Source: an uncultured Acidobacteriota bacterium (GTDB lineage: Bacteria > Acidobacteriota > Vicinamibacteria > Vicinamibacterales > Fen-181). From it: DNA of 64,000 nt. The DNA is taken from assembly GCA_963698725.1 (NCBI GenBank), contig CAVORY010000011.1, forward strand, positions 446,499 through 510,498, given 5' to 3'. Below are positions 14,678 through 63,276 of the stretch, in pieces (positions within the stretch are counted from its first letter, which is position 1; each line of letters begins with the position of its first letter). The notes under the pieces were generated by a model, which saw only the letters and a program-made list of their open reading frames with translations, was not told the DNA's origin and made no database searches. The position numbers and the translations under genes were made by a program.

Positions 14678-14729
14678 AGGGCTCAGGGCTCAAGGCTCAG
14701 GGCTCAGGGCTCAAGGCTTTGGGCTCAGG
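14678..14729. repeat. Heptanucleotide tandem repeat, about 7 units of (A/G)GGCT(C/T)A
   Basis: AGGGCTC AGGGCTC AAGGCTC AGGGCTC AGGGCTC AAGGCTT TGGGCTC, starting 4 nt after the stop at 14674. Confidence 0.9.
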
Positions 14730-14913
14730 CACGCTAGCCGCACGCCTGGATCCAAATCGCCCGGTCCGTGATACCGTGTCTCTGCCCCGGCGAGCCCTCG
14801 CCGAAGCGCTTCGCGCGAAGGCGGGCGGCCCCGCGCGAAGGCTCACGTGTGGCGCGGGGCTTCAGCCCCGCGATTCCCGCGCGTGTACTGGGCGGTCATC
14901 AAGGAGATTGGCG

Positions 14914-16668
14914 ATGCGGAGACGAGGCCTGTTCATGCTCGGGTTCATCCTGCTGGCGGTTGGCCTGATCGGCGCGGCAAGCTCGCAGGACGTGCAGAAA
15001 CCGTCGGCCGTGCAGGGAGCCCTGCCCGACGAGTGGCTCGGCAAGAAGATCTGCGGCTACCCCCGCCCCGAGGGTGTGCCGGTTGAAGTCTGGGAGAACG
15101 CCTGCGAAGCGTGCACGTCGGTGCCCACCAGCCCCGAGACGTCCGCGGACGGCACGCTGACCAGCCATTCCTGCGACGGCGGCTACGAGATCCGGATCAA
15201 GGTCGTGCCCGGCAGGTCCTACCCGGCTGGCGCCAAGCGCGACATCATGAAGGGCGGCGGCCTCGGCGAAGAGAAGCCGCCGGAGCGCCAGGAGCGCAAG
15301 GTCGGGGACATGCCGCAGGTGGCGCAGACCTTCACCCGCTACGACGCGTCGTACCCGTTCATGAACGAGAAGGGCGTCATCATCGGCGAGACGACGATCG
15401 GCGGCCGCCGCGAACTCTACAACGACGAAGGCCTGATGGACATCATGGAGCTCGAGCGGATTGCGCTCGAGCGCGCGTCCACGGCCCGCGAGGCGATCGC
15501 CATCATGGGCGAGATGGCCGAGAAGTACGGCTACGGCGACAGCGGCGAGTGCCTGACGATCGGCGACGCCAAGGAGGTCTGGCAGTTCGAGATCTTCGGG
15601 CCGGGCCCGGCCGAACAGGGCGCCGTCTGGGCCGCCAAGCGGATCCCGCCGGGCGAAGTCGGCGTCTCGGCCAACCGCTCCCGCATCACGACGCTCACCA
15701 GCGACCCGAACTTCACGATGTACTCGAAGAACGTCTACACCGTGGCCGAATCGATGGGTTGGTGGAAGAAGGGCGACCCGTTCCTCTTCAACCGGATCTT
15801 CGGCATGTCCGGCGCGCCGACGCCGAACCGCCGCGAGTGGCGCGTGCTCAGCATCCTGGCCCCGTCGCTGAAGCTCGATCCATGGGCGGGTGAGCAGCCG
15901 TTCTCGGTGAAGCCCGACAAGAAGGTCACGGTCCGCGACCTGATGGCGATCCATCGCGACATCTACCAGGGGACCGAGTTCGACCAGACCAAGGGCCCGC
16001 TCGCCGGCCCGTTCGGCACGCCGAACCGCTGGTCGATGCCGCAGGGCTACCGGGGGACACCCGGCTACTCGGCGACCGAGCGGATGATCGCCGTCCACCA
16101 GTGCTCCTACGTGACCGTCCTGCAGGCGCGCGCCAACATGCCGCCATGGCTCGGGAGCCTGGCGTGGTTCGCGCCCGACGACGCGAAGACGTCGGTCTTC
16201 ACGCCGCTCTACGCCGGCAATTTCAAGGTGCCCGCGGCGTACGAGATCGGCCGGCGCGACCGCTTCGATCGCAACTCGTTCTTCTGGGCCGCGAACTTCA
16301 TCGGCAACTGGGCGAACCTGAACTGGAGCGGGATGATGCAGGACATCCGCGCCAGGCAGGCCGAGATCGAGAACAAGCTGTTCGCCGACCAGCCGGTGAT
16401 CGAGAGACTCGCCCTCGAGATGTCCAAGACCGAGCCGGACCGCGCGCGCGTGTTCATCAGCGACTACTCGAACCGCGTGGCGCAGGAGAACTACATGAAG
16501 TGGTGGGAGCTGGCCGACAAGCTCGTCACCGACTATCAGGACGGCGGGTCGCGCACGTCCGGCGCCAAACGGTCGATCCCGGCCGACTGGCTCGAGAAGC
16601 AGGGGCCGTTCGGCACCAAGCTCCCGGAAACGCCGGCGAAGAAGGTCGAACAGCCCGTGAAGAAGTAG
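14914..16668 (+). CDS. C69-family dipeptidase, secreted
   Basis: AAGGAG RBS and a signal peptide. Candidate N-terminal nucleophile Cys context (ACEACTSV...SADGT), then YPFMNEKGVIIGETT and ...ECLTIGDAKEVWQFEI, typical of peptidase C69. Confidence 0.8.
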   Translation: MRRRGLFMLGFILLAVGLIGAASSQDVQKPSAVQGALPDEWLGKKICGYPRPEGVPVEVWENACEACTSVPTSPETSADGTLTSHSCDGGYEIRIKVVPGRSYPAGAKRDIMKGGGLGEEKPPERQERKVGDMPQVAQTFTRYDASYPFMNEKGVIIGETTIGGRRELYNDEGLMDIMELERIALERASTAREAIAIMGEMAEKYGYGDSGECLTIGDAKEVWQFEIFGPGPAEQGAVWAAKRIPPGEVGVSANRSRITTLTSDPNFTMYSKNVYTVAESMGWWKKGDPFLFNRIFGMSGAPTPNRREWRVLSILAPSLKLDPWAGEQPFSVKPDKKVTVRDLMAIHRDIYQGTEFDQTKGPLAGPFGTPNRWSMPQGYRGTPGYSATERMIAVHQCSYVTVLQARANMPPWLGSLAWFAPDDAKTSVFTPLYAGNFKVPAAYEIGRRDRFDRNSFFWAANFIGNWANLNWSGMMQDIRARQAEIENKLFADQPVIERLALEMSKTEPDRARVFISDYSNRVAQENYMKWWELADKLVTDYQDGGSRTSGAKRSIPADWLEKQGPFGTKLPETPAKKVEQPVKK

Positions 16669-19756: not shown

Positions 19757-21775
19757 ATGTTCGACGCCACCGGTCCCGTGCCTGACGGAACGATGCCGGA
19801 GGTCCAGCGGATGCGCATCGGCGTGTTCATCTGCCACTGCGGCGGCAACATCTCGGACGTGGTGGACGTCAAGCGGGTGGCCGAAGAAGCCTCGCGCATG
19901 CCGGACGTCGCGTTCGCGACGACGCACATGTTCAACTGCTCCGACCCGGGGCAGGCGCTGATCGAGCAGAAGATTCGCGAGCATGCGCTGACGCGCGTCA
20001 TCGTCGCGGCCTGCTCGCCGACGCTTCATCAGATCACGTTCCGGCGGGCGATCGAACGCGCCGGCCTCAACCAGTACCTCTTCGAGCACGTCAACATCCG
20101 CGAGCACGTGTCGTGGGTCATCGAGGATGGCGAGGCGGCCACGGCGAAGGCGTCGCGCCTGGTGCGCGCGGCGGTCAACCGGGCTCGCCATCTCGTTCCG
20201 CTCGATCAGCGCCGCATCCCGATTCACCCGGCGGCCCTGGTCATCGGCGGCGGCGTGGCCGGGCTGATGGCGGCACGCGATCTGGCCGACCGCGGGATGA
20301 AGGTGACGCTCATCGAGAAGCGGCCGTTCCTCGGCGGCCGGATGGCCCAGCTGTGGAACCTGTTCCCGACCGGCGAGGAGGCGCGCCCGATGCTCCTCGA
20401 ACTGGTTCACGACGTCGTGAGGCACCCGCTCGTCACGGTTCTCACCGGCGCGCACGTCACCGACTCGGAGGGCGTTGTCGGCGACTTCAAGACGAAGGTC
20501 ACCATCGACCCGCGGGGCGTGGACGAGCGGCTGACCTACCCGGGCAACGCGATTGCGGCCTGCCCGGAGGAGACGATCAGCGAGTTCGACTTCGCGCTCA
20601 GCCGCCGCAAGGCGATCTATATGCCGTACCCGGGATGCTACCCGCCGATCCCGGCCATCGACTGGCACACGTGCACGAAATGCGGGAAGTGCGTGGCGGC
20701 GGTGGGCGGGAAAGGGATCAACCTCAACGCCCAGCCGCGCGAGCTGACGCTGCACTCCGGCGTCATCGTTCTGGCCACCGGCTACGACCCGTACGAGCCG
20801 CTGCTCGGCGAGTTCGGCTACGGGATCTTCCCCAAGGTGATCACCCTTCAGCAGCTGCACCGGATGCTCGACCCGGAGGGGCCGACGGCGGGCGCGCTCC
20901 CCGTGGACACCCAGAAGCCGGTCCGGATCGGATTCCTGCACTGCGTCGGCGCGCGGCAGATCGAAGGCGTGAACGCGCCGCAGCCGGACGGCAAGGTGAA
21001 GGACTACTGCGCGCGCACCTGCTGCACGGCGGCCATGCACGCGGCGGTCGCCATCAAGGAACGCCTGCCGAACGCGCAGATCACGTCGTTCTACCAGGAC
21101 ATGCGGACCTACGGCCGGGGGCACGAGGAGTACTACGAGAAGGCGTCGGAGAAGGGCGTGCTGTTCGTCCGGTACAGCCCGCGGCACCCGCCGCGCGTCG
21201 ACAAGGACCGCTCGGGCCAGTGGCCGCTGGTCGTGCGCACGAAGGACCTGCTGACCGACAACCTGGCCATCGAAGTGCCGCTGGATCTGCTGGTGCTGGC
21301 GACGGGCGTCGTGCCGCACGACATCTCCGAGCTGGTGACGATGTACTCGTGCGCGGTCGGGTACGACAGTTTCCTGCTCGAGGTGCATCCCAAGCTGAGG
21401 CCGGTCGAACTGGCGGTGTCCGGCGTGTTCCTGGCCGGCTGCTGCCAGGGGCCGATGGACGTCACCGAGGCGTGTTCGGCCGCGTCGGCGGCCGCCTCGA
21501 AGGCGGCGGCGATGATCTCGCAGGGCCAGGTGGAGATGGACCCGTTCATCGCGAGCGTCGACGAGGCGGTGTGCACCGGGTGCGCCACCTGCCTGACGGT
21601 GTGCCCGTACGACGCGATCAGCCGCGACGAAGCGAGGGGGCTGGCGATGGTGAGCGAGGCGCTCTGCACCGGGTGCGGCACGTGCGCCGCCACCTGCCCG
21701 AGCGCGGCCATCCAGCAGGCCGGGTTCAACGACGACCAGGTGCGCGCGGAGCTCGAGGTGCTGCTGGCGGGGTAG
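19757..21775 (+). CDS. hdrA: HdrA-like FAD/FeS flavoprotein (heterodisulfide reductase subunit A family)
   Basis: N-terminal Cys cluster IGVFICHCGGNI, Rossmann motif VIGGGVAGLMAARDLA, and C-terminal 2x[4Fe-4S] motifs CTGCATCLTVCP and CTGCGTCAATCP. RBS GAGGAG. Confidence 0.9.
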   Translation: MFDATGPVPDGTMPEVQRMRIGVFICHCGGNISDVVDVKRVAEEASRMPDVAFATTHMFNCSDPGQALIEQKIREHALTRVIVAACSPTLHQITFRRAIERAGLNQYLFEHVNIREHVSWVIEDGEAATAKASRLVRAAVNRARHLVPLDQRRIPIHPAALVIGGGVAGLMAARDLADRGMKVTLIEKRPFLGGRMAQLWNLFPTGEEARPMLLELVHDVVRHPLVTVLTGAHVTDSEGVVGDFKTKVTIDPRGVDERLTYPGNAIAACPEETISEFDFALSRRKAIYMPYPGCYPPIPAIDWHTCTKCGKCVAAVGGKGINLNAQPRELTLHSGVIVLATGYDPYEPLLGEFGYGIFPKVITLQQLHRMLDPEGPTAGALPVDTQKPVRIGFLHCVGARQIEGVNAPQPDGKVKDYCARTCCTAAMHAAVAIKERLPNAQITSFYQDMRTYGRGHEEYYEKASEKGVLFVRYSPRHPPRVDKDRSGQWPLVVRTKDLLTDNLAIEVPLDLLVLATGVVPHDISELVTMYSCAVGYDSFLLEVHPKLRPVELAVSGVFLAGCCQGPMDVTEACSAASAAASKAAAMISQGQVEMDPFIASVDEAVCTGCATCLTVCPYDAISRDEARGLAMVSEALCTGCGTCAATCPSAAIQQAGFNDDQVRAELEVLLAG

Positions 21776-21786
21776 GGACGGAGGGC

Positions 21787-21861
21787 GGCTCAGGGCTTAG
21801 GGCTTAGGGCTCAGGGCCTTGAGCCATGAGCCTTGAGCCATGAGCCTTGAGCCTTGAGCCT
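21787..21861. repeat. Heptamer-built hairpin (GGCTYAG units facing YTGAGCC units) inside the operon
   Basis: Left arm GGCTCAG GGCTTAG GGCTTAG GGCTCAG. Right arm TTGAGCC ATGAGCC TTGAGCC ATGAGCC TTGAGCC TTGAGCC. The arms are mutually complementary. Confidence 0.9.
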
Positions 21862-21906
21862 GGCGCCCGGGAGCGGCGGGGTCGTCCGGCGGAGGAGACA
21901 GAGCAT

Positions 21907-23430: not shown

Positions 23431-24945
23431 ATGACGACCGCGCCGTCCACGACCACGCCGCCCTTCCGGCGGATCAGCATCGACCCGATCACCCGCCTCG
23501 AGGGGCACGGGAAGATCGACATCTTCCTCGACGCCGACGGCGAGGTGGCCGACTGCTTCTTCCAGGTGCCCGAGCTGCGCGGCTTCGAGAAGTTCTGCGA
23601 GGGCCGCCCGGTCGAGGAGATGCCCCGCATCACGCCCCGGATCTGCGGCGTCTGCCCCGAGGCGCACCTGATGGCGGCCGCCAAGGCGTGCGACGCCGTG
23701 TACAAGGTGTCGCTCCCGCTGACGGCCAAACTGATCCGCGAACTCCAGTACAACCTCTTCTACGTCACCGATCACGCGACGCACTTCTACGCGCTCGCCG
23801 CGCCCGATTTCGTCATGGGCCCCGCCAGCAACCCGGCCGAGCGGAACCTGATCGGCGTCATCCGGAAGCTCGGCGTCGAGGTCGGCCAGAAGGTCATCAC
23901 GGCCAGGAAGTGGGGCCACGAGGCGGCGGCGATCTTCGGCGGCCGCCCGGTGAACCCCGAGAACGCCATCCCGGGAGGCGTGTCGAAGCCGATTTCCGCT
24001 TCCGAGCGCGAGCGCCTCGAGGAGATCACGCGCTACATGGTCGAGTTCGCGAAGTTCACGCTGGTCGTGCTGCGCGAGCAGGTGCTGGCGAACTCCGCGT
24101 ACGTCGACCTCATTCTGAACGGACCCTACGTCCACCGGACGTACTCGATGGGCCTGGTCGACGAGAAGAACCGCACCAACTTCTACGACGGCAAGGTGCG
24201 CGTTGTCGACCCGGACGGCCACGAGCTGTGCAAGTACGCGCCGCGCGACTACGCCAAGCACATCGCCGAACGGGTCGAACCCTGGAGCTACCTCAAGTTT
24301 CCGTTCCTCACCCAGGTCGGGTGGAAGGGGTTCGTCGACGGCAAACAGTCGGGCGTCTACCGCGCCACACCGCAATCGCGCCTCAACGTCGCCGACGCGA
24401 TGAGCACACCGCTCGCGCAGGAGGCCTACGAGGAGTACTTCGAGACGCTCACCGGCGACCGCACCGGCCATACCATGGTCCACCAGACGCTGGCGATCCA
24501 CTGGGCGCGGGTCGTCGAGATGGTGAACGCCGCCGAACGCGCCGCGGAACTGGTGCGCCACCCGGAGCTCACGCACCCTGAGAACTACCGCGTGATCCCG
24601 CACGACACCCCCACCGAGGGCGTCGGCATCGTCGAAGCGCCGCGCGGCACGCTCGTGCACCACTACGTCACCGACGAGAACGGCATCGTCCGCAAAGCGA
24701 ACCTCGTGGTGGGGACGACGAACAACCACGCGGCCATCTGCATGTCGATCAAGCAGGCGGCCCAGGGGCTCATCCGGAAGGGTGTCGAGGTCAACGAAGG
24801 CGTGCTGAACATGATCGAGATGGCGTTCCGCGCGTACGACCCGTGCTTCGGGTGCGCCACCCACAGCCTGCCGGGGAAGATGCCGATGGTGGTCAGGGTC
24901 AGGGAGGCGGATGGGACGGTGATTCAGGAGACGAGCAGGGCCTAA
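23431..24945 (+). CDS. mvhA: [NiFe]-hydrogenase large subunit (group 3, MvhA-like)
   Basis: N-terminal RLEGHGKI, L1 RICGVCPEAH, and C-terminal L2 DPCFGCATHS Ni-Fe ligand motifs. Confidence 0.95.
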   Translation: MTTAPSTTTPPFRRISIDPITRLEGHGKIDIFLDADGEVADCFFQVPELRGFEKFCEGRPVEEMPRITPRICGVCPEAHLMAAAKACDAVYKVSLPLTAKLIRELQYNLFYVTDHATHFYALAAPDFVMGPASNPAERNLIGVIRKLGVEVGQKVITARKWGHEAAAIFGGRPVNPENAIPGGVSKPISASERERLEEITRYMVEFAKFTLVVLREQVLANSAYVDLILNGPYVHRTYSMGLVDEKNRTNFYDGKVRVVDPDGHELCKYAPRDYAKHIAERVEPWSYLKFPFLTQVGWKGFVDGKQSGVYRATPQSRLNVADAMSTPLAQEAYEEYFETLTGDRTGHTMVHQTLAIHWARVVEMVNAAERAAELVRHPELTHPENYRVIPHDTPTEGVGIVEAPRGTLVHHYVTDENGIVRKANLVVGTTNNHAAICMSIKQAAQGLIRKGVEVNEGVLNMIEMAFRAYDPCFGCATHSLPGKMPMVVRVREADGTVIQETSRA

Positions 24946-24989
24946 GGCTCAAGGCTCGAGGCTCAGGCCTAAGCCCTGAGCCCTGAGCC
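24943..24989. repeat. Heptamer-built hairpin starting at the mvhA stop codon
   Basis: AAGGCTC AAGGCTC GAGGCTC AGG facing CCTAAGCC CTGAGCC CTGAGCC. Confidence 0.85.
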
Positions 24990-25006
24990 AGTCGAGGAGT
25001 GCACCA

Positions 25007-26323
25007 ATGGCTGAGATGAGGGACCGGTACGACGCGCTCGTGATCGGCGGGGGCATCGCCGGCATGCAGGCAGCCCTCGACCTGGGCGAGCAGGGGTTCG
25101 AGGTGCTCCTGGTCGAGCGCACGCCGTCGATCGGCGGCGTGATGGTCGGGCTCAACAAGGTCTTCCCCACGCTCGACTGTTCGTCCTGCATCTGCACCCC
25201 CCGCATGGCGGAATCGGCGCACCACCCGCGCATCCGGCTGCAGACCTACACGGAGGTCCGGTCGGTCGAACCGGTCGGCACCGGCTTCAGCGTGGATCTC
25301 GAGTGCAAGCCGCGCTACCTCCACGAGGACACCTGCATCGGCTGCGACGAGTGCGAGCTGGCGTGCCCGATCGAGGTGCCGCACGAATTCGACTACGGCC
25401 TCGGCGCGCGGCGCGCCATCTATATTCCCCACGGGAACGCCATCCCCCAGAAGGCGGTGCTCGATCTCGAGCACTGCGTCTTCTGCGGCAAGTGCGAGAA
25501 GGTCTGCCCGACACACTGCATCGACTTCACCGCCGAGGCGAAGCACGCCCGCGTGGACGTCGGCGCCGTGATCGTGGCCACGGGCCTCGACATCCTGCCC
25601 ATGGACAGGAAGCCGGAGTACGGCGGGACGCTGCCGAACGTCATGAGCCCGCTCGCCATGGAGCGTATCCAGTCGAGCAACGGGCCCTACGGGCGCGTGC
25701 TGCGGCCGGCGGACGGCAAGATCCCGCGGTCGATCGCTTACATCCAGTGCGCTGGCAGCCGCGACCGCTCGATCGGCGTGCCGTACTGCTCGCGGGTCTG
25801 CTGCATGTACGCGCTCAAGCAGGCCCTGCTGCTGCGCCACTACATCCACGACGTCGAAGTCGCCCTCTACTACATGGACATCCGCGCGTTCGGGAAGGGC
25901 TACGAGCAGTTCTACCGGCGGGCGGTGGCCGAGGGCGTCAACGTGATCAAGGGCAAGGTGGCCCGCGTCACCCAGACGGACAACTTCGACCTGATCCTGC
26001 GCGTGGAACTGCTCGACGAGGGGGGCCGCGTCGACGAGCACCGCTACGATCTGGTCGTGCTCAGCCAGGGTCTGATCGCCGCCTGGCACCCCGACGGCGT
26101 CATCGACATCGAAGATGCCGACGACGGGTTCATCCACACGCCGGAGATCAAGCTGAACCCGTCGTTCACCACGATGCCCGGCGTCTTCGTCGGGGGCGTG
26201 GCCGCCGGCCCGAAGGACATCCCGGACGCGATTGTCGAGGCGGGCGAGGCGGCGATGGCGGCGGCCAATTACCTGAAGCGGTACCGGTGGCGTTCGAGCA
26301 GGCCGGCGGTCGCCGTCGCGTAG
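25007..26323 (+). CDS. Second HdrA-like FAD-dependent oxidoreductase with 2x[4Fe-4S]
   Basis: VIGGGIAGMQAALDLGE Rossmann motif, CSSCICTPRM, and ferredoxin motifs CIGCDECELACP and CVFCGKCEKVCP. 438 aa. Confidence 0.85.
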   Translation: MAEMRDRYDALVIGGGIAGMQAALDLGEQGFEVLLVERTPSIGGVMVGLNKVFPTLDCSSCICTPRMAESAHHPRIRLQTYTEVRSVEPVGTGFSVDLECKPRYLHEDTCIGCDECELACPIEVPHEFDYGLGARRAIYIPHGNAIPQKAVLDLEHCVFCGKCEKVCPTHCIDFTAEAKHARVDVGAVIVATGLDILPMDRKPEYGGTLPNVMSPLAMERIQSSNGPYGRVLRPADGKIPRSIAYIQCAGSRDRSIGVPYCSRVCCMYALKQALLLRHYIHDVEVALYYMDIRAFGKGYEQFYRRAVAEGVNVIKGKVARVTQTDNFDLILRVELLDEGGRVDEHRYDLVVLSQGLIAAWHPDGVIDIEDADDGFIHTPEIKLNPSFTTMPGVFVGGVAAGPKDIPDAIVEAGEAAMAAANYLKRYRWRSSRPAVAVA

Positions 26324-52603: not shown

Positions 52604-52681
52604 AGCCGGCAGCGGGCAGCTGACAGCCGTCAGCGGATTCGGAGTGATCCGCTGGCAGCTGCCAGCTGACAGCTGCCAGCT
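52604..52681. repeat. GCTGNCA/TGNCAGC heptamer-built hairpin between ferredoxin and nuoB
   Basis: Left arm GCCGGCAGCGGGCAGCTGACAGCCGTCAGCGGA, loop TTCGGAGTGA, right arm TCCGCTGGCAGCTGCCAGCTGACAGCTGCCAGC. Confidence 0.9.
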
Positions 52682-54307: not shown

Positions 54308-54422
54308 GCGAGCGCCCTTCGATGAACTCCGGGCGGCCCGAGCCTGTCGAGGGCCGAAGCGAGTCGCAGGGTAGGCAGTAGGCGGCGACTCCCGCCGCCA
54401 TGCCCCGTGAGCCGCCGGCCGC

Positions 54423-54658
54423 CGCGTCGGCCCGGTGCGGGCGCCCCGCTCGCCGGACTCCGGGCGGCTGCGCGGCAAACCCGCTCTCCGGCCCTTGTCG
54501 GCCGCTCGCCGCGGGGGTCGCGCGGTCTGATCCGCGTGCGTGATCGCGCTCTACCCCGCTGGGGCCCACCGCCTGCGAGCGTGTTTGCGAACTGACGCCG
54601 AGGCGCTTGCCGCCAGTCGCCGGTCTCGCGAGGCATCCCGCACCCGCCCGCCGCGGCG
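54423..54658. repeat. 236-bp dispersed repeat module, copy 1
   Basis: About 96% identical by eye to 59701-59936 in the same orientation. Contains the hairpin GCGCGGTC...GATCGCGC. Confidence 0.9.
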
Positions 54659-54946
54659 GCCGTCGGCCGCTGCACCGCTCGGCGGCGAACGGTGGCGTCC
54701 GCCTGGACAGGACCCGAACAGCGGAAGCCCGGTCGGGTCCGGCACGGACCTCCCGCCACGGGCAGCCGCGCACACGACGAGCGGCCTCACGCCGCCATAC
54801 CCCGTGAGCCCTGCCCTTCGACTCGGTCGCGTCGCGGCCTCGCTCAGGGCACCCCGAGCGAAGTCGAGGGGTGAGCCGTGAGCCCATAGCCCTCGGAGCC
54901 CCGCGTGCTATCATTTTGGTTTGCGGCCGAGCGCCGCTCAGAGCAC

Positions 54947-55855: not shown

Positions 55856-56865
55856 ACGATCCACTCGCCCCGCTGTCGCATGAGGCGCAGGTCGGACTCC
55901 TCCGGAAGATGCTCCTCGGCCGCCGGTTCGAAGAGCGCTGCGCCGAGATGTACGCGATGCAGAAGATCGGCGGGTTCTGCCACCTGGCGATCGGCCAGGA
56001 GGCGATCTCGGTCGGCGCGTTGTCGACGCTCGAGCCCGGCGATGCGATTTTCTGCTCGTATCGCGACCACGTGCACGCCCTCACCAAGGGCGCCGACCCC
56101 GGGCGGGTGATGGCCGAGCTCTTCGGCCGAGACACCGGCCTCTCGCGCGGCAAGGGCGGGTCGATGCACCTGTTCGACAAGGAGCACGGCATGCTCGGCG
56201 GCCACGCGATCGTGGGCGGCCACATCCCGCTCGCGACCGGCGTCGCGTTCGCGGCCAAGTACGAAGGGCGCCCGCAGGTGGTGCTGTGCTTCTTCGGCGA
56301 GGCGGCCGTCAACATCGGCGCGTTCCACGAGTCGCTGAACATGGCGGCCCTCTGGAAGCTCCCCTGCATCTACATCGTCGAGAACAACCGGTACGGGATG
56401 GGGACCGCCATCGAGCGCGCGTCGGCCCTCTACGACATCGCGGCGCGCGCGTGCGCGTACGACATGGCCAGCGAAACGGTGGACGGCATGGACGTCCTGG
56501 CCGTGCGCGAGGTCGTCGGCCGCGCCGTCGCCCTCGCGCGGCGCGAAAGCGCGCCGACGCTGATCGACGCCCGGTGCTACCGATTCATGGGCCATTCGAT
56601 GTCCGACCCGGTGCACGGCCACTACCGCACGCGGGAGGAAGTCGAGGCGCAGAAGACGAAGGACCCGGTGCGGACCTACTACCAGCGACTCGTCGACCAG
56701 GGGCTCCTCGACCCGGCCGGCCTGGAGCGGATGGACGCGGACGTGCGCACGATCGTCGACGCGGCGGTCGAGTTCGCCGAGGCGAGCCCCGAACCGGCCG
56801 ACAGCGCGCTGTTCGAGGATGTCTACAGCCAGCCGTACGGACCGTATACGAGGAGCCAGCCTTAG
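55852..56865 (+). CDS. pdhA: Pyruvate/2-oxoacid dehydrogenase E1 alpha subunit
   Basis: ATGA overlap with lipA. GFCHLAIGQEA and the ThDP motif GEAAVNIGAFHESLNMAALWKLPCIYIVENN. Confidence 0.9.
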   Translation: MNDPLAPLSHEAQVGLLRKMLLGRRFEERCAEMYAMQKIGGFCHLAIGQEAISVGALSTLEPGDAIFCSYRDHVHALTKGADPGRVMAELFGRDTGLSRGKGGSMHLFDKEHGMLGGHAIVGGHIPLATGVAFAAKYEGRPQVVLCFFGEAAVNIGAFHESLNMAALWKLPCIYIVENNRYGMGTAIERASALYDIAARACAYDMASETVDGMDVLAVREVVGRAVALARRESAPTLIDARCYRFMGHSMSDPVHGHYRTREEVEAQKTKDPVRTYYQRLVDQGLLDPAGLERMDADVRTIVDAAVEFAEASPEPADSALFEDVYSQPYGPYTRSQP

Positions 56866-56945
56866 CTGGCAGCTGTTAGCTGGCAGCTGGCAGCGGACTA
56901 ACGCGTGACTCCGTCCCAGGCCATGAGCCGTGAGCCGTGAGCGGG
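56864..56945. repeat. Two heptamer blocks: GCTGGCA-type (56864-56897), then TGAGCCG-type (56921-56945)
   Basis: TAGCTGG CAGCTGT TAGCTGG CAGCTGG CAGC ... GCCATGA GCCGTGA GCCGTGA GC. Confidence 0.85.
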
Positions 56946-56970: not shown

Positions 56971-57951
56971 ATGGCACTGATAACCTACCGCGAGGCGCTG
57001 ACCCAGGCGCTGGCCGAGGAGATGCGGCGCGACCCAAAGGTCTTCCTCATGGGCGAGGAGGTCGGCGTTTACCAGGGCGCGTACAAGGTCAGCCGCGGCC
57101 TGCTGCAGGAGTTCGGCCCGCGCCGCGTCATCGACACGCCCATCACCGAGGAAGGCTTCGCCGGCGTCGGCGTCGGTGCCGCGATGGTCGGGCTGCGGCC
57201 CGTCATCGAGATGATGACGTGGAACTTCTCGATGCTGGCGATGGACCAGATCATCAACGGCGCCGCGAAGATGCTCTACATGTCGGGCGGCCAGTTCACG
57301 ATCCCGATCGTCGTGCGCGGGCCGGGCGGCGCGGCGCACCAGCTGGCAGCCCAGCACTCGCAGGCGCTCGAGTCGTGGTACGCGCACGTCCCGGGCCTGA
57401 AGGTCGTCGCTCCCGCGACGCCGTACGACGCCAAGGGCCTGCTGAAGGCGGCCATCCGAGACGACGACCCGGTGATCTTCTGCGAGGGCGAGACGCTCTA
57501 CGGGTCGAAGGGCGAGGTGCCCGAAGGCGATTATGTCGTCCCGATCGGCGTGGCCGACGTCAAGCGCGAGGGCACCGACGTCACCATCGTCGCCTGGTCG
57601 AAGATGGTGAACGTGGCGCTGAAGGCGGCCGATGCTCTGGCCGCCGAAGGCGTGTCGTGCGAGATCGTGGATCTGCGCACGCTGCGCCCGCTCGACGAGG
57701 AGCCGATCCTCGCCTCGGTGCGCAAGACCAACCGCTGCGTCGTCGTCGAGGAAGGGTGGGAGTACGCCGGCGTCGGCGCGCAGCTGGCGTATCTGATTCA
57801 CCGCGACGCGTTCGGCGACCTCGATGCCCCGGTGACGCGGGTGACCGGCGCCGATGTCCCGATGCCCTACGCGAAGAACCTGGAGCACCTGGCGATGCCC
57901 TCCGCCGCGCGCGTCGTGGCGGCGGTCAAAGAGGTGCTGTATATCGAATAG
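56971..57951 (+). CDS. pdhB: Pyruvate/2-oxoacid dehydrogenase E1 beta subunit
   Basis: Transketolase-like Pyr and C-terminal domains ([13 protein letters not shown]..., IVRGPGG). Confidence 0.9.
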
Positions 57952-58024
57952 GGAAGAGGATTGAGGAGCGAGGGGCGAGGGCCTATCCCGTCCCTCGTTC
58001 CTCGTTCCTCATCCCTCGTCCCTA
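57951..58024. repeat. Heptamer-built hairpin of a third sequence type (GAGGNNC facing CCTCGTY)
   Basis: Left arm GGGAAGAGGATTGAGGAGCGAGGGGCGAGGG. Right arm CCCTCGT TCCTCGT TCCTCAT CCCTCGT CCC. Confidence 0.9.
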
Positions 58025-58040
58025 TTGTGAGGAACGACCT

Positions 58041-59303
58041 ATGGCTTCCCGCGTCGTGATGCCGAAGTTGAGCGACACCATGGAGGAGGGCAAGATCCTC
58101 CGCTGGTTGAAACAGGAAGGCGACCGGGTCGAAACCGGCCAGACGCTCGCCGAGGTGGAAACCGACAAGGCCACCGTCGAGATGGAGGCCTACACCAACG
58201 GCGTCATCAGGAAGATCGTGGCAGCGCCGGGCGACACGGTGAAGATCGGCGCGCTCATCGCGGTCATCGGCGCTCCGGACGAGGATGTCTCGGCGCTTCT
58301 CGAGACGCCGGCTCCGGCACCATCACGTGTGACACCGCCGCAGGCCGCAAGCCGCCAGCCCGCCTCCGCCTTTGAGGCTACGGCGGGCAAGCCGCAAGCC
58401 ACACCCCGCGAGCCCGCCTCCGCCTTCGAGGCTACGGCGGGCAAGCCGCAAGCCGCAGGAGGCCGCGCCCTTCGCGCTTCGCCGCTCGCGCTTCGAATGG
58501 CCGCCGAATCGGGCATCAACCTCGGCGCGCTCCAGGGCACGGGGCCGCAGGGCCGCGTCATCAAGCGCGACATCGAAGCCGCGCTCGCCGCCGCTGCCGC
58601 GCCGGCGCCGCCGGCCGCACAACCGGTCGGCGACGTGCAGGAGTTCGAGCTGTCGTCGATGCGGCGGACCATTGCGAAACGCCTGGTCCAGAGCAAGGCG
58701 CCGGTTCCCCACTTCTACCTGACGGTGGACGCCGCGGTCGATCGCCTGTGGGAGGCCTACCGCGCCCTTCGCGAGGAGAACTACCCGATCTCGCTCAACG
58801 ACGTCATCATCAAGGCCGCGGCCGTGGCGCTGCGCAGGCACCCCGAGATGAACGCGTCGTTTGCCGGCGATCACGTCAAGCAGTATTCGCACGTGCACAT
58901 CGGTGTCGCCGTGGCGATTGACGATGGTCTGATCACGCCGGTGATTCGCGACGCCGACACGAAGTCGCTGGCCGACATCGCGTCGGAGGCCAAGGCGCTG
59001 GCCGAGCGCGCCCGCAGCCGCCGCCTGCAGCCGAACGAGTACACCGGCGCGACGTTCTCGATCTCCAACCTCGGCATGATGGGCATCGACGAGTTCTCGG
59101 CCATCATCAACCCGCCCGAGGCGGCGATCCTCGCCGTCGGCGCGGTACGCGAAGTGCCGGTGGTCGAGGGGGGACAGGTGAAGGCCGGCCGCCGCATGAA
59201 GCTCACGCTGTCGGTCGATCACCGCGTCGCCGACGGCGCCCAGGCCGCGCGCTTCCTCGGCACGCTCCGCCGAATGCTCGAAAATCCGCTGCTGCTGGGC
59301 TGA
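58041..59303 (+). CDS. pdhC: Dihydrolipoamide acetyltransferase E2
   Basis: Lipoyl domain (EVETDKATVEMEA), PSBD (ASPLALRMAAESGINL) and catalytic DHRVADG. The linker carries a 54-bp tandem duplication. Confidence 0.9.
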   Translation: MASRVVMPKLSDTMEEGKILRWLKQEGDRVETGQTLAEVETDKATVEMEAYTNGVIRKIVAAPGDTVKIGALIAVIGAPDEDVSALLETPAPAPSRVTPPQAASRQPASAFEATAGKPQATPREPASAFEATAGKPQAAGGRALRASPLALRMAAESGINLGALQGTGPQGRVIKRDIEAALAAAAAPAPPAAQPVGDVQEFELSSMRRTIAKRLVQSKAPVPHFYLTVDAAVDRLWEAYRALREENYPISLNDVIIKAAAVALRRHPEMNASFAGDHVKQYSHVHIGVAVAIDDGLITPVIRDADTKSLADIASEAKALAERARSRRLQPNEYTGATFSISNLGMMGIDEFSAIINPPEAAILAVGAVREVPVVEGGQVKAGRRMKLTLSVDHRVADGAQAARFLGTLRRMLENPLLLG

Positions 59304-59700
59304 CCGCTCGAAGCGCGAGACGGCGCCTGCCCCTCGCGCCCGGCCCCGCGGCCGATGAGACGGCAGTCGTGGCCCCGCCGCCGACCGGTGCAGCGGCCGA
59401 CGGGCGCCGGGGGATGCCTGCTCGAGCGAACATGCGACCGCCTTCGCGCGAGGCTTCGGCGGTCCGCCGATAGCCTGGGCGGAGGCGGAGCCTGCCGTCG
59501 GTCGAATGCACAGCCCGGCACCGCAGGTTCAGACTTGCCCGGAGGCTGTCTGACCGATGCCGACTGGCTCACGAGAGACCCACCGACCGAGGATGCCGGG
59601 CTCGGCGCTGTCGAGCGTTCGCGAGAGCGGGCGCCCACGACGACCGGCGGCTCACGACCGGGCGACCGCAAGCCGGCTCGAGTGCCGGCCTGACCGTCGA

Positions 59701-59936
59701 CGCGTCGGCCCGGTGCGGGCGCCCCGCTCGCCGGACTCCGGGCGGCTGCGCGGCAAACCCGCTCTCCGGCCGTCGTCGGCCGCTGGCCGCGGGGGTCGCG
59801 CGGTCTGATCCGCGTGCGTGATCGCGCTCTACCCCGCTGGATCCCATCACCTGCGAGCGTGTTTGCGAACTGACGCCGAAGCGCTTGCCGCCAGTCGCCG
59901 GTCTCGCGAGGCATCCCGCACCCGCCCGCCGCGGCG
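59701..59936. repeat. 236-bp dispersed repeat module, copy 2
   Basis: See copy 1 at 54423-54658. Confidence 0.9.
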
Positions 59937-60010
59937 TCTGGGCAATGCCGGCCCTGGACGCAGGGGGGAACGCCGACGCGCTCGGGCCGCGCCGCCGGTG
60001 CTGAGGCGGT

Positions 60011-60043
60011 CCGCTGCCAGCTACCAGCTGCCAGCTGCCAGCT
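60011..60043. repeat. GCTGCCA heptamer run (about 4.5 units)
   Basis: CCGCTGCCAGCTACCAGCTGCCAGCTGCCAGCT, about 75 nt upstream of the next start. Confidence 0.85.
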
Positions 60044-60117
60044 TTCTCGGGGTCGTGTAAGATATCCCCGCCATCGTACCTTCCCGTCCGTGTCGCATCG
60101 ATCAATGGAGAGTGCGG

Positions 60118-63102
60118 ATGAACACCCGAAGAGCATGTCACGCCTGGTTCTTCCTGCCCCTGGTCCTCTTCGCCCTCGCGGCGCCTGCCGCCGCGCAGCC
60201 GGCAGCGCCCGACCTCGTTCGTGACCTCAAGTGGCGCAACATCGGCCCGGCCAACATGAGCGGCCGCATCTCGGACATCGAAGCGCTCGACGCCGACTTC
60301 AGCAAAGTCCTCGTCGCCACCGCCTCGGGCGGCGTGTTCAAGTCGGTCAACGCCGGCACCACCTGGGAGCCGATCTTCGACAAGTACTCCAGCGCGTCCA
60401 TCGGCGACGTCGCCTGGTTCCAGAAGAACCCGGACATCATCTGGGTCGGCACCGGAGAAGAGTGCGTCCGCAACAGCGTGGCCTGGGGCGACGGCATCTA
60501 CAAGTCGACCGACGGCGGCAAGACCTTCGCCCACATGGGCCTCAAGGACACCGGCAGCATCGGCAAGGTCCTCCTCCACCCGGCCGACCCCAACATCGTC
60601 TACGTGGCGGCCAGCGGCCACACGTGGGGCTACACCGGCGACCGCGGCCTGTTCAAGACGATCGACGGCGGCAAGACCTGGCAGAAGCTCGCCGGGGGCC
60701 TGCCGAGCGACGGCAAGACGGGCGCCATCGACATGGTGATGCACCCGACGAATCCGAACGTCCTCTACGTCACCTTCTGGCAGCGCCTCCGCCAGCCCTA
60801 CCGCTTCGACTCCGGCGGCCCGAACGGCGGCATCTTCCAGTCGACCGACGCCGGCAAGACCTGGAAGAAGCTGACGACAGGCCTCCCGACCGGCGACCTC
60901 GGCCGCATCGGCATCACCATCAGCCGCTCGAAACCGAACGTCCTGATGGCCATCGTCGAGCACAGCTTCCAGCCGGCCGCGCAGGCCGCGGGCAAGCCGA
61001 ATCCCGACTTCGCCGACATGACCAAGCTCGGATCGGGCATCTACCGCTCGGAAGACGGCGGCAAGACGTGGAAGTACCTGAGCCGCATGAACAGCCGGCC
61101 GTTCTACTACAGCCACATCATCCTCAATCCGGTGGACGACCAGCGGGTGTACTACCTGACCGCCAGCTTCATGAAGTCGGAGGACGGCGGCAAGACCTGG
61201 CAGAACGTGCCCGGCCTGCACCCCGACTACCACGCGATGTGGCTGGACCCGATGCACAAGGACCGCTTCTACAACGGCCAGGACGCCGGCGCGGCGCTCA
61301 CGCACGACCACGGCAGGACGTTCATCTATTTCGACAACATCTGCGCCGGCCAGTTCTACGCGGTGAGCGCCGACATGCGCGACCCGTACCACGTCTACGG
61401 CGGCCTGCAGGACAACGGCACGTGGGGCGGGCCGTCGATGCACCGCGAGGGGGCCATCCTCACCGACTTCTGGTTCAATATCGGCGGCGGCGACGGCTTC
61501 CATACGCAGAACGACCCGACCGACTGGCGCATCGTTTACGGCGAGAGCCAGGGCGGCTCCGTGTCGCGAACCAACGTCGAGACGCGCGAGTCGCGCAGCA
61601 TCCGGCCGACGCCGCAGAACATCGTGAACTACCGGGACTACTACCCGACGCCTCCGCCGGCCCCGGCCGCGCCGGCGCCGGGCCAGCCGCCGCAGCAGCC
61701 CGCCTCGCCGCTCCGCTTCAACTGGAGCACGCCGATCTACCTCTCGCCGCACAACCCGAGCACCGTCTACTTCGGCGGCAACCACCTGTTCAAGTCGGTC
61801 GATCGCGGCGACCGCTGGCAGATGGTCAGCCCCGATCTGACGACCAACGACAAGTCGAAGCTCGGGCCGCGGCAGGGCGGCACGATGACGCCGACCGGCG
61901 GCATGACGACCGACGATACGGGCGCCGAGACCCACTGCACGATCATCACCATCTCCGAGTCGACGCTCCGGCCCGGTGTCATCTGGGTCGGCACCGACGA
62001 TGGCAACGTGCAGGTGACGCGTGACGGCGGCGCGACCTGGGCCAACGTGCGGGCCGCGGTGCCCGGCGTGCCGAAGGGCACCTGGGTGAGCCGCGTCGAG
62101 GCGTCGCGCACCGCGGAAGGTGCGGCCTACCTGACGTTCGACGGTCACCGCAGCGACGACTTCAAGCCGTACGTCTTCGTGACGAAGGACTTCGGGAAGA
62201 CCTGGACGAGCCTGTCGGCCGGCATCCCGGACGGCCAGCCCGTCTACGTCATCCGCGAGGACCCGAAGAACGCGAACCTGCTGTTCCTCGGCACCGAATT
62301 CGGCGTGTTCTTCTCGATCGACGCGGGCAAGCAGTGGCACAGCCTGAAGCTGAACATGCCGACGGTGTCGTTCCACGACCTCCTGATCCACCCGCGCGAC
62401 AACGACCTCATCGCCGCCACGCACGGCCGCGGCATCTGGATCCTCGACGACATCTCGGCGCTGCAGCAGGCGACGCCGACGGTGCTGGCCGAAGACGCCA
62501 GGCTGTTCACGACAACCCGCCCGGCCACGCGGTGGCTGCGCATCCAGCGCGGCGGGTACGGGCGCGGCGACCTGTACTTCCAAGGCGAGAACCCGCCGGC
62601 CGGCGGGTTGCTCCACGTCTACAGGAAGACCGGCGTGCCGGCGACCGTCGAGATCACCGACGGCGACCAGCTCAAGGCGACGTTCATCGTCGACGACGCG
62701 AAGGCCGGCATCAACCGGATCGCGTGGGACCTGCGGTGGGATCCGTCGGCGGTGGTGGTGGAAAACACGGCGAACAGCGCCAAGTCGCAGATCGAGACGG
62801 CGCTCAAGCGGACCGACCTCAAGCCCGAGCAGAAGGCGGCGCTCGAAAAGGGCCTGGCGGCGGTCGCGAAGTACGCGAAGAACTACCGGAAGCTGATCGA
62901 GATCACGCAGGAGCTGGCCGATCTGATTCGGCCGCCCGGCATGGGGATGGGACAGCGCGGCGGCGGCATGCGCGGCGGGTTCGGCGGCGGCGGGCAGGCC
63001 GAGCCCGGCACCTACTTCGTGAAGATGACGGTGAACGGAAAGACGACGACGAGCAGGATCGTCGTGCGGCCGGATCCGATCCAGGCGGCCGCGGGACGAT
63101 AG
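60118..63102 (+). CDS. Secreted sortilin/VPS10-type BNR (Asp-box) repeat beta-propeller protein
   Basis: GGAG RBS and a signal peptide. At least 10 Asp-box motifs SxDxGxTW (STDGGKTF, TIDGGKTW, STDAGKTW, SEDGGKTW x2, TRDGGATW, TKDFGKTW, SIDAGKQW). Confidence 0.85.
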   Translation: MNTRRACHAWFFLPLVLFALAAPAAAQPAAPDLVRDLKWRNIGPANMSGRISDIEALDADFSKVLVATASGGVFKSVNAGTTWEPIFDKYSSASIGDVAWFQKNPDIIWVGTGEECVRNSVAWGDGIYKSTDGGKTFAHMGLKDTGSIGKVLLHPADPNIVYVAASGHTWGYTGDRGLFKTIDGGKTWQKLAGGLPSDGKTGAIDMVMHPTNPNVLYVTFWQRLRQPYRFDSGGPNGGIFQSTDAGKTWKKLTTGLPTGDLGRIGITISRSKPNVLMAIVEHSFQPAAQAAGKPNPDFADMTKLGSGIYRSEDGGKTWKYLSRMNSRPFYYSHIILNPVDDQRVYYLTASFMKSEDGGKTWQNVPGLHPDYHAMWLDPMHKDRFYNGQDAGAALTHDHGRTFIYFDNICAGQFYAVSADMRDPYHVYGGLQDNGTWGGPSMHREGAILTDFWFNIGGGDGFHTQNDPTDWRIVYGESQGGSVSRTNVETRESRSIRPTPQNIVNYRDYYPTPPPAPAAPAPGQPPQQPASPLRFNWSTPIYLSPHNPSTVYFGGNHLFKSVDRGDRWQMVSPDLTTNDKSKLGPRQGGTMTPTGGMTTDDTGAETHCTIITISESTLRPGVIWVGTDDGNVQVTRDGGATWANVRAAVPGVPKGTWVSRVEASRTAEGAAYLTFDGHRSDDFKPYVFVTKDFGKTWTSLSAGIPDGQPVYVIREDPKNANLLFLGTEFGVFFSIDAGKQWHSLKLNMPTVSFHDLLIHPRDNDLIAATHGRGIWILDDISALQQATPTVLAEDARLFTTTRPATRWLRIQRGGYGRGDLYFQGENPPAGGLLHVYRKTGVPATVEITDGDQLKATFIVDDAKAGINRIAWDLRWDPSAVVVENTANSAKSQIETALKRTDLKPEQKAALEKGLAAVAKYAKNYRKLIEITQELADLIRPPGMGMGQRGGGMRGGFGGGGQAEPGTYFVKMTVNGKTTTSRIVVRPDPIQAAAGR

Positions 63103-63107
63103 GGGCC

Positions 63108-63276
63108 GGCTCACGGCCCACGGCTCAGGGCTTAGGGCTCAAGGCTTAGGGCTGGATCACGCTGCCACGCTGTGGGACAGTTTGATCCGGCCGCAAGCCG
63201 TAAGCCGTAGGCCGTAAGCCGCAAGCCGTAAGCCGTGAGCCCTGAGCCCTAAGCCCTGAGCCTTGAGCCTTGAGCC
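63108..63276. repeat. Largest heptamer hairpin: about 6.5 GGCTNAG-type units, a 35-nt palindromic centre, and about 12.5 NNNAGCC-type units
   Basis: Centre GGATCA...TGATCC. Right arm GCAAGCC GTAAGCC GTAGGCC GTAAGCC GCAAGCC GTAAGCC GTGAGCC CTGAGCC CTAAGCC CTGAGCC TTGAGCC TTGAGCC. Lies between convergent genes. Confidence 0.9.

Follow-up and report, generated by a model that had tools for sequence, protein, structure and literature searches.

Stop-codon-anchored heptanucleotide arrays and facing-array hairpins in a Vicinamibacterales-like acidobacterium and its relatives

What are the intergenic runs with an exact period of seven nucleotides that lie between positions 14678 and 63276 of a 64,000-nt stretch of an uncultured acidobacterial genome (GenBank assembly GCA_963698725.1, contig CAVORY010000011.1, positions 446,499 to 510,498; hereafter the window), and how do they arise? 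A preliminary description, made from the letters of the window, had named four unrelated unit sequences, placed most arrays directly behind stop codons, supposed a mechanism working on a 7-nt register, either slippage or a protein or ribonucleoprotein that measures heptads, and recognised no described repeat class. We conclude that the arrays are intergenic heptanucleotide simple-sequence repeats (SSRs), and consider it probable that they grew by slippage from a seed at the stop codon, are tolerated only between this codon and the next ribosome-binding site (RBS), and act on operon mRNA in the manner of repetitive extragenic palindromic (REP) sequences rather than as terminators.

The window has a G+C content of 69%. 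Its genes were mapped by codon usage and most called genes checked against Pfam, which divided it into an intergenic part of 9,020 nt and a coding part of 54,981 nt. The encoded pyruvate dehydrogenase (PDH) E1-beta is 81-95% identical to proteins from soil metagenomes and metagenome-assembled genomes labelled Vicinamibacterales or Acidobacteriota, and from these matches the host is judged to be a Vicinamibacterales-like acidobacterium. For comparison, 100 related loci (about 1.4 Mb; designated by L and a number) were fetched, the first 84 comprising 1.25 Mb and the 16 further ones being Vicinamibacterales gaps between E1-beta and E2 genes, collected by a metagenome scan anchored on the E2 start.

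Tandem Repeats Finder (TRF) reported period-7 arrays at all positions named in the preliminary description except 54853, where about three TGAGCCN units are present but score below 30, leaving this site as a weak one. When the whole window was scanned for runs, 6 strong ones had period 7, whereas 20 dinucleotide shuffles yielded 0; periods 2-6 and 8-13 gave 0-1 runs each, and the runs at periods 14 and 15 represent multiples of 7 together with one other repeat. Within the 9,020 intergenic nt, 9 period-7 runs were counted, where 200 shuffles averaged 0.01 (maximum 1), with 0-1 runs at every other period, and the 54,981 nt of coding DNA held no strong tandem run at any period. Want of enrichment over a shuffled intergenic background had been put forward as grounds for discarding the arrays; this comparison was run, and with 9 runs against 0.01 those grounds fall away. 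The observation of heptamer arrays is confirmed and statistically overwhelming, and 7 is the sole enriched short tandem period in the window.

The four unit types had been named correctly. GGCTYAG/CTRAGCC occurs at 14678, 21787, 24944, 26329, 39862, 43285, 56920 and 63105; AGCTGNC/GNCAGCT, given earlier as GCTGCCA/TGGCAGC, at 30499, 52603, 56862 and 60013 and also within a 39-nt tandem repeat (30591-30858); CCGCCCT at 43362; and GAGGNGC/CCTCGTY at 57947. According to TRF, the arrays contain 2.4 to 12 copies, some with higher-order periods of 14 and 21 nt. There is about one array site per 4.6 kb of the window, and by a count from the gene map roughly a quarter of the intergenic gaps hold arrays. 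A telomerase-like or single-template origin, considered on account of TTAGGGC-like units, was rejected because many unrelated units coexist.

The statement that most arrays start within 0-6 nt of a stop codon is true for 9 of 14 sites; 11 of the 14 begin 0-17 nt past a stop, while those at 43362, 54853 and 60013 lie upstream of starts instead. The first unit or the stem takes in the stop codon at 24944, 30499, 52681 (minus strand), 56862 and 57947. Among relatives, all 22 hairpins in gaps between E1-alpha and E1-beta or E1-beta and E2 have a stem beginning -3 to +7 nt from the stop, and end 15-63 nt before the next start. A less refined scan over all loci, in which a stop-to-stop filter for open reading frames (ORFs) overestimates coding overlap and which was used for stop distance only, placed 33% of elements within 10 nt of a stop, compared with 4.6% of random non-coding positions. 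The register also reaches into the stop codon, whose bases are identical to those 7 nt downstream 55% of the time (79% inside arrays, 42% in the last sense codon, 30% further upstream); it can be followed through the stop in TGAtgagTGAtgagTGA (L039), TGAcgagTGAcgagTGA (L050) and TAGgggcTAGgggcTAG (L007).

On the gene map, 11 sites occupy co-directional gaps and 2 convergent ones (30499 and 63105), and none falls into the 5 divergent gaps. Most sites are operon-internal, between genes for multi-subunit enzymes: HdrA-like, MvhD and NiFe-hydrogenase genes at 19.8-28.4 kb, Fer4 and Oxidored_q6 genes at 52 kb, and lipoyl synthase and PDH E1-alpha, E1-beta and E2 genes at 55-59 kb. Arrays survive only between a stop codon and the RBS or promoter of the next gene; a 7-nt duplication elsewhere shifts the reading frame or disturbs initiation. 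In tightly packed operons, the position at the stop would be nearly the sole one where such a duplication spares both the frame and the next RBS.

Two further ideas concerning the stop codon were tried and rejected. Enrichment of TAG among array-adjacent stops is not significant, since TAG leads the stop codons of the window anyway (29 of 52 called genes, with 19 TGA and 4 TAA). In high-GC bacteria TGA is usually the preferred stop. Selection of units for stop triplets in all three frames, to which a length of 7 = 2x3+1 would lend itself, was likewise discarded: the count was 37 of 79 units, against 29.6 expected (p ~0.02), stop triplets within units are only weakly enriched, and several major units have none.

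Facing blocks had been described as complementary and forming long imperfect hairpins, and at six sites the arms are 72-88% complementary. Folding as RNA gave -60.8 kcal/mol (z -6.4 relative to shuffles) for 21780-21866, -61.3 kcal/mol (z -7.0) for 52598-52686 on the minus strand, -60.1 kcal/mol (z -9.0) for 57945-58030, -115.7 kcal/mol (z -7.5) for 63100-63290, -41.6 kcal/mol (z -4.1) for 30496-30575 and -29.1 kcal/mol (z -2.8) for 24940-24995. No complementary partner array was found for 14678, 26329, 39862, 43285 or 60013, nor within the unlike pair at 56862-56942, and the folds of 14675-14760, 26324-26371, 56860-56945 and 60000-60060 show no convincing gain over shuffles (z -1.9 to +0.4). 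The values for 39858-39925 (z -2.4) and 43283-43365 (z -4.9) are owed to an adjacent GC hairpin and an adjacent intrinsic terminator, respectively. The Rfam search proposed earlier, carried out on the whole window with Rfam 15, returned 0 matches at gathering score.

Stable GC-rich hairpins directly past stops, two of which (30499 and 63105) fill convergent gaps, could be taken for transcription terminators or attenuators. However, no U-tract follows the heptamer hairpins, and therefore they are not intrinsic terminators; the sole classical terminator near any array, at 43326-43362, belongs to the glutamate dehydrogenase gene (gdh), which has it separately, right after its heptamer array. Moreover, most sites lie inside operons of multi-subunit enzymes, where termination would be harmful. 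Termination is excluded outright for the operon-internal sites, and as a general explanation we hold it to be extremely unlikely.

The 5' arm is the one richer in G in 31 of 34 hairpins, or by count in roughly 18 of 21 distinct unit types; arrays with a single arm behind a stop show this tendency too, though not significantly (14 versus 6). Sense-strand specificity was rejected as an interpretation of this bias: read on either strand, a palindrome has its arms in the same order, and all that follows from the bias is a preference for G-first over C-first palindromes. About one G-over-C surplus per unit would be expected if the units descend from heptamers consisting of (T/C)AG plus four or TGA plus four nucleotides.

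G-rich arms raise the question of whether the arrays form G-quadruplexes, as proposed for the G-rich heptamers of Xanthomonas and Nostoc. The GGGCTCA/GGGCTTA, GAGGGGC and AGGGCGG units have tracts of three to four G spaced 7 nt apart, the G-richer arm adjoins the stop as in PMC4692102, and L029 and L089 carry GGGAATC and GGGGATT, the published Xanthomonas and Nostoc units. However, G-tracts are missing from AGCTGCC, the other main family of the window, and from most units of relatives (AATCGTG, GGCTATT, AGTTTTC, GATTTTG), and the interpretation therefore does not generalise; in the hairpins, furthermore, the G-arm is paired with its complement at about -60 kcal/mol. Instead of one dominant G-rich unit preferring four copies, which is the class in the narrow sense of Rehm et al. 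(2015), we find 79 unit types and 2.4-12 copies, and consider quadruplexes a very unlikely general explanation.

The arrays are a genome style and not a local oddity, as had been supposed: they occur in relatives, other Acidobacteriota and Gemmatimonadota. The 84 loci (1.25 Mb) hold 89 period-7, 38 period-8 and 12 period-9 runs, and at most 7 for any other period from 4 to 12. Period and facing-array architecture, not sequence, are the shared feature, in keeping with the preliminary description, since 122 runs fall into 79 canonical unit types. GGCTATT/CCAATAG hairpins stand at four sites of one Gemmatimonadales contig (L018), AATCGTG/ATTCACG occurs throughout Pyrinomonadaceae (L042, L044, L055, L067, L069, L079), and other facing pairs are AGTCAGG/CTGACTC and AGTGATG/ATCACTC (L039), GATTTTG/CAAAATC (L068) and TGGTCCC/GGACCAA (L010). 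In some Gemmatimonadaceae (L012, L032, L037) the units of this architecture are 8 nt long, for example GGTGGACC. Octamer arrays, intergenic and in facing pairs, were found in the Gemmatimonadales loci L012, L032, L037, L015 and L018 (GGTGGACC/GGTCCACC, GAGGGCGT, GGACGGGC), with up to 9 per 21 kb in L037. The preferred period appears to be lineage-specific, and given period 8 in some Gemmatimonadaceae, 7 is no universal constant.

Gaps of the PDH operon document the turnover of arrays. Relatives without arrays between E1-beta and E2 mostly have short gaps, many gaps longer than about 85 nt hold heptamer arrays, and dozens of different unit types occur among those sampled. The E1-beta/E2 gap provides a series from an empty gap of 19 nt (L099) through a short GAGGGAC/GTCCCTCGTCCC hairpin (L088) to the expanded form of the window, all three sharing the ribosome-binding block GAGGAACG(T/A)CCTATG. 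L091 and L086, with 95% nucleotide identity in E2, have a 29-nt gap (TAGGGCTCGGTGCTGAGCC) and a 204-nt gap with a large TGCTGAG-type hairpin, respectively. L087, which is 92% identical to the window at the 3' end of E1-beta, carries an AGCTGGC hairpin followed by (GTCTTCT)5 where the window has GAGGNGC/CCTCGTY; this hairpin shares its CAGCGGATC apex with those at 30499 and 52603. Both PDH-operon arrays are missing from L001 (95% amino-acid identity), which retains the one at the site equivalent to 60013 with about one unit less and has an AGCTGGC array at a place where the window has none. Since near relatives differ by arrays at such sites, arrays grow, shrink, vanish and get replaced faster than the flanking genes diverge, and there is also movement of some unit families from locus to locus. 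Slippage on a 7-nt register, as first suggested, fits both the copy-number differences and the graded short-to-long series.

Two side observations concern the same gaps. Pyrimidine-rich single arrays (GTCTTCT, CTTCTGG, CTGAATT, TTGCATT) stand directly before the E2 Shine-Dalgarno region in several Vicinamibacterales (L003, L005, L008, L087, L090, L092, L095); the window has the CCTCGTY arm of its hairpin at this position instead. At 9870-9940 of L003, the E1-alpha ORF continues beyond the conserved ...PYGPYTRS end for another 21 codons and terminates at the first TGA of a (TGAGCC)n array, whose sequence, GTGACTCCGTCCCAGGCC, is intergenic in the window (56866-56942); either an array change removed the original stop or a long-read frameshift error is responsible. 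The E2 gene of L003 is also broken.

Alternatively, the hairpins could be non-autonomous elements resembling REP doublets forming hairpins (REPINs) or miniature transposable elements with inverted repeats (MITEs), moved in trans by a transposase encoded elsewhere, with the heptamer structure being secondary. Within one genome a unit family recurs at many separate loci, a non-trivial apex, CAGCGGATC...GATCCGCTG, is retained by the AGCTGCC family at 30499, at 52603 and at a different locus in L087, the half-elements at 56862 and 60013 recall REP singlets, and a site can switch unit family between genomes that are about 90% identical. Against this, comparison of filled and empty sites shows no terminal inverted repeat with target-site duplication, 79 unit types in about 1.4 Mb far exceed any known set of transposase-specific families, and graded series of expansion in place exist. 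Among the Pfam-scanned window genes, which are nearly all of those called, there is no transposase or Y1 domain of REP-associated tyrosine transposases (RAYTs); GTAG heads were seen at 8 of 25 TAG-adjacent arrays, which in an informal count with an assumed G frequency is about the compositional rate. A conserved palindromic unit of 20-40 nt, as in REPs, was not found, only the AGCTGCC group sharing an apex, CAGCGGATC. MITEs with TA or TNA target preference, for which stops would be rare TA-containing sites at 69% GC, were rejected, there being no consistent flanking duplications. The preliminary description was right to set the arrays apart from ordinary REPs, bacterial interspersed mosaic elements (BIMEs) and MITEs, for their arms consist of heptamers in tandem, drawn from at least four unrelated units, with no flanking target duplication. 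We judge mobilisation by a transposase to be unlikely.

The assertion that no described repeat class accommodates the arrays does not hold, since heptameric intergenic repeats have been published for Xanthomonas and Nostoc (PMC4692102). The arrays belong to the described class of intergenic heptanucleotide SSRs, with tandem 7-nt units above chance in non-coding DNA, a distance of at most 50 bp from the stop, single arrays as well as inverted pairs, and a length that varies between relatives. In two Xanthomonas species, GGGAATC repeats occupy 186 and 183 sites, 89-93% of them intergenic and mostly between aligned ORFs, lie nearer the upstream ORF (mean 28 nt), at most 50 bp from the stop or overlapping it, and form 70-75 convergent inverted pairs able to make stem-loops; their lengths differ between the two species, the single or paired type is usually kept, and most are transcribed (PMC4692102). 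The arrays described here resemble these repeats and the GGGGA(C/T)T repeats of Nostoc and Anabaena (Rehm et al., 2015; PMC4692102) in their tandem 7-nt units, intergenic and stop-proximal position and G-rich side by the stop, and those of Xanthomonas also in occurring singly or as convergent inverted pairs and in varying in length at a kept site (PMC4692102).

Xanthomonas and Nostoc differ in having essentially one G-tract unit, whereas the window has at least four unrelated units and its relatives have dozens, most without G-tracts. A Xanthomonas genome comprises about 5 Mb, so that about 185 sites correspond to about one per 27 kb, compared with about one per 4.6 kb in the window. Turnover seems to be faster here, with presence or absence of arrays at 95% nucleotide identity. 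Cyanobacterial heptamers, including those of Microcystis and those of Calothrix and Anabaena called short tandemly repeated repetitive (STRR) sequences, are similar in that several tandem, intergenic heptanucleotide units occur per genome. Three units are cited for Calothrix PCC 7601 in PMC4692102, and "a range of repeating heptamers" is given for Microcystis (PMC4679880). These cyanobacterial units are, however, AT-richer, and inverted pairing is rare in Anabaena (PMC4692102), while hairpins are prominent here.

Further known systems share some of these features. In Nostoc, heptamer repeats affect the expression of recF and recO (bioRxiv 10.1101/2022.06.06.494920). The TAACTGA repeats of marine Beggiatoaceae are intergenic 7-nt units in 2-6 copies, missing from relatives with the same neighbourhood and mixed with other heptamers in some genomes; unlike the arrays of the window, they comprise one unit, lie mainly just upstream of starts and are almost never inverted, with 169 direct sets and one indirect (PMC4679880). 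In Geobacter metallireducens, GC-rich tandem heptamers are dispersed over tens of sites, in part between genes belonging to a single pathway (GGGACCG in four copies at 49 sites; MTYCTGA in five copies), but these have fixed numbers of four or five copies, occur also inside genes and were treated as one BLAST-aligned family, and no facing-arm hairpins are described for GGGACCG (PMC2700814). REP, BIME and REPIN elements of Enterobacteria and Pseudomonas are similar in being imperfect extragenic palindromes past stops, within or at the ends of operons, with several families per genome, singlets and doublets, and a proposed role in mRNA stabilisation, as outlined in PMC2817692 and PMC3733652. Their arms differ in having a fixed sequence of 20-40 nt with a GTAG or CGTC head in place of tandem heptamers, and REPs are tied to RAYT transposases, of which no gene was found among the scanned window genes. 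Stop-proximal REPs affect translation. Compared with the known class, the arrays differ in how many unrelated units there are, in site density, in having hairpins as the dominant form, in their host phyla and in the sister case with period 8. Acidobacteriota and Gemmatimonadota are not mentioned as hosts in PMC4692102, and our literature search found no report of heptamer repeats for either phylum.

With class and turnover established, the favoured explanation can be stated as a sequence of steps. A stretch of 7 nt at or just after the stop codon would be duplicated in tandem, as suggested by the comparisons, and the array would then lengthen or shorten in steps of 7, 14 or 21 nt by slipped-strand replication. 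Both arms of a small post-stop stem-loop would often expand, giving a "zipper" hairpin of roughly 20-65 aligned arm positions, and some unit families would occasionally be copied between loci. According to a 2007 survey, which both PMC4679880 and PMC4692102 quote, no long SSRs are more abundant in many bacteria than heptanucleotide repeats; the proposal made there is that the polymerase contacts a stretch of 7 nt, which would favour slippage. Operon-internal hairpins would be transcribed as part of the mRNA, on which, by analogy, their most likely role would be that of REP elements in E. coli: as a barrier to 3'-to-5' exonucleases or a processing point they would set segmental mRNA stability. 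With a stem that starts at the stop codon, they might also brake the terminating ribosome.

Several points weigh against this explanation. The role in mRNA stability relies on analogy. Stem mismatches in 22 sense-oriented hairpins include 53 G.U and 41 A.C (p = 0.26), and the lack of a significant G.U excess means that there is no positive sign of selection on RNA as opposed to DNA pairing. Slippage alone does not explain why a few unit families are reused at many sites of one genome; such reuse, put at 7 sites for GGCTYAG and 5 for AGCTGCC and including the CAGCGGATC apex common to the window and L087, requires some copying between loci. The G-first arm bias is only partly accounted for by descent from a stop-codon heptamer. 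Finally, no reason is given for 7, nor for 8 in some Gemmatimonadaceae.

The conserved period could alternatively reflect a protein that binds single-stranded nucleic acid and takes up about 7 nt with each domain, for instance a cold-shock-domain protein or ribosomal protein S1, for which the arrays would be platforms and the hairpins switches on intercistronic RNA, titratable by protein or temperature. Such a binder would be consistent with a period that is conserved where the sequence is not, with a preferred period that is lineage-specific (mostly 7, 8 in some Gemmatimonadaceae), and with pyrimidine-rich arrays right upstream of ribosome-binding sites (GTCTTCT, CTTCTGG and TTGCATT in relatives, CCGCCCT in the window); CspB binds heptamer direct repeats with one protein per heptamer, according to work cited in PMC4679880. 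However, the extreme diversity of units speaks against a binder that reads sequence, a binder that purely measures length needs no exact tandem identity, and rapid gain and loss among near relatives is unlike a conserved regulatory site. We regard this alternative as decidedly improbable. As to the protein or ribonucleoprotein that was supposed to measure heptads, nothing shows one, and some Gemmatimonadaceae use period 8.

A broader and improbable extension is that a lineage-tunable "ruler" (7 nt in most Acidobacteriota and Gemmatimonadota; 8 in some Gemmatimonadaceae) actively generates or maintains zipper hairpins as a phylum-wide, REP-like, transposase-independent and stop-anchored layer of post-transcriptional control. 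Such a ruler might be inherent in the machinery of replication or repair, or a single-strand-binding protein might supply it through a 7-nt footprint.

The individual sites are given on the plus strand unless stated otherwise, with TRF limits added where a site holds more than one array. The array at 14678-14729, 7.4 copies of AGGGCTC with a 21-nt super-period, begins 3 nt past the TAG (14672-14674) of a DUF7918 gene and is single-armed, without a complementary partner (fold z -1.9). At 21787-21861 (TRF 21787-21817 and 21816-21861), a hairpin of 4.4 copies of GGCTYAG facing 6.6 of GCCWTGA lies operon-internally, 11 nt past the TAG of an HdrA-like gene (19793-21775) and 45 nt before an FlpD/MvhD gene. 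The short hairpin at 24944-24989 (TRF 24944-24965 and 24968-24989) has 3.1 copies of AAGGCTC facing 3.1 of CCTGAGC; its first unit overlaps the TAA (24943-24945) of a NiFe-hydrogenase large-subunit gene, and the next ATG is 17 nt beyond the hairpin. A short single array of GCCGTGA/GCCCTGA (3.6 copies; 26329-26353), with no significant fold, begins 5 nt past a TAG at 26321-26323.

In the convergent gap behind a DUF4824 gene, the AGCTGNC/GNCAGCT hairpin at 30499-30570 (TRF 30506-30537 and 30554-30570) has the apex CAGCGGATC...GATCCGCTG, and its first unit is the TAG stop (30499-30501). It is followed at 30591-30858 by 6.7 copies of the 39-nt tandem repeat, whose unit combines 17 nt with the right-hand half of the AGCTGCC hairpin (GATCCGCCGCCAGCTGCCAGCT) and in which TRF reports a further period-7 array (30601-30617); this repeat is a higher-order amplification and no spacer array. 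A 33-nt tandem repeat of five copies with 97% identity (13645-13810; unit ACGGCCTGCCTCGCCGAAGCTGCCTGGCAGCGA) holds the palindrome AGCTGCC-TGGCAGC, related to the same heptamer family, and lies between divergent genes (one ending at 13603, the other starting at about 13901) or possibly in the 5' part of an ORF at 13187-14674. CRISPR arrays were rejected for 30591-30858 and 13645-13810, which are pure 39- and 33-nt tandem repeats without unique spacers.

The single-arm array at 39862-39900, 5.6 copies of CGGCTCA with a 14-nt super-period, begins 17 nt past the TGA of a STAS-domain gene and has a small GC hairpin next to it. Downstream, in a gap of 650 nt and upstream of a GAF-SpoIIE phosphatase gene, lies a non-heptameric long hairpin at 40033-40119 with 41-nt arms (80% complementary) and a 5-nt loop. 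The gdh array (4.6 copies of GGGCTCA, single-armed, 43285-43316) starts 2 nt past the TAG, and the intrinsic terminator behind it, which is no heptamer element, consists of a 13-bp GC stem and TTTTCTTTT. This is followed at 43362-43443 by a pyrimidine-strand array of about 11 TCCGCCC/CCGCCCT units with 15- and 29-nt super-periods, ending 36 nt upstream of the ATG at 43480.

On the minus strand, the AGCTGNC hairpin at 52603-52681 (TRF 52603-52634 and 52651-52681), with the apex CAGCGGATC...GAATCCGCTG, starts in the sense direction with the TAG stop of a Fer4 gene (52680-52940) and ends about 13 nt before the ATG of an Oxidored_q6 gene. The weak site, read directly at 54853-54890, is upstream of the lipoyl synthase gene, which was assigned from ortholog annotations. 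At 56862-56942, 4.4 copies of AGCTGGC, the first of which contains the TAG stop of the E1-alpha gene, are followed after about 25 nt by 3.3 copies of GCCGTGA (TRF 56864-56894 and 56920-56942); the two arrays are not complementary (fold z -0.6). The hairpin at 57947-58026 (TRF 57963-57981 and 57989-58023), about three copies of GAGGNGC facing five of CCTCGTY, includes in its stem the TAG stop (57949-57951) of the E1-beta gene, and the E2 ATG is 29 nt beyond its end. TRF and direct reading identify a single-arm array of 4.4 copies of GCTGCCA at 60013-60043, preceded by GGTCCGCT, which ends 68 nt upstream of the ATG of a BNR/sortilin-like gene. The largest hairpin, at 63105-63279 (TRF 63108-63153 and 63190-63276), has 6.6 copies of GGCTYAS facing 12 of GCCGYAA/GCCCTGA and fills a convergent gap, from 2 nt past a TAG at 63100-63102 to 10 nt before the stop of a minus-strand gene at 63290.

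Other repeats were noted in the window. The E2 linker region at 58337-58454 contains 2.2 copies of a 54-nt (18-codon) repeat with GCCGCAA motifs resembling units of the 63190 array; it translates in frame and is a coding linker duplication, not an intergenic array. A 239-nt GC-rich repeat occurs twice with 96% identity (54420-54658 and 59698-59936), once in the gap upstream of the lipoyl synthase gene and once in that upstream of the BNR/sortilin-like gene. L003 has a related copy in a gap (about 7400-7700), L001 has none upstream of its lipoyl synthase gene, and Rfam gave only a sub-threshold M23 match beside it; the repeat could be a mobile element or a non-coding RNA. A 56-nt direct repeat with 88% identity stands in two different upstream regions, before a MacB-like permease gene at 1928 (1763-1818) and beside the start of a Uma2 gene at 5144 (5119-5174), and may represent a regulatory element that the two have in common.

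Observations of heptamer repeats between genes go back decades in cyanobacteria and to 2007 for bacteria at large, and the present comparison suggests that such arrays are unusually dense and diverse in two abundant soil phyla. Any mechanism has to comply with a stem at the stop, a register that includes the stop, a G-richer arm that comes first, turnover at 95% identity and a sister lineage with 8 nt. In practice, the arrays break short-read assemblies and inflate or truncate ORF calls at gene ends, as with the 21 additional codons of E1-alpha in L003, and they could serve as strain markers for uncultured soil bacteria. If a lineage-tunable ruler does exist, the rapid turnover of hairpins would tune the stoichiometry of operon products.

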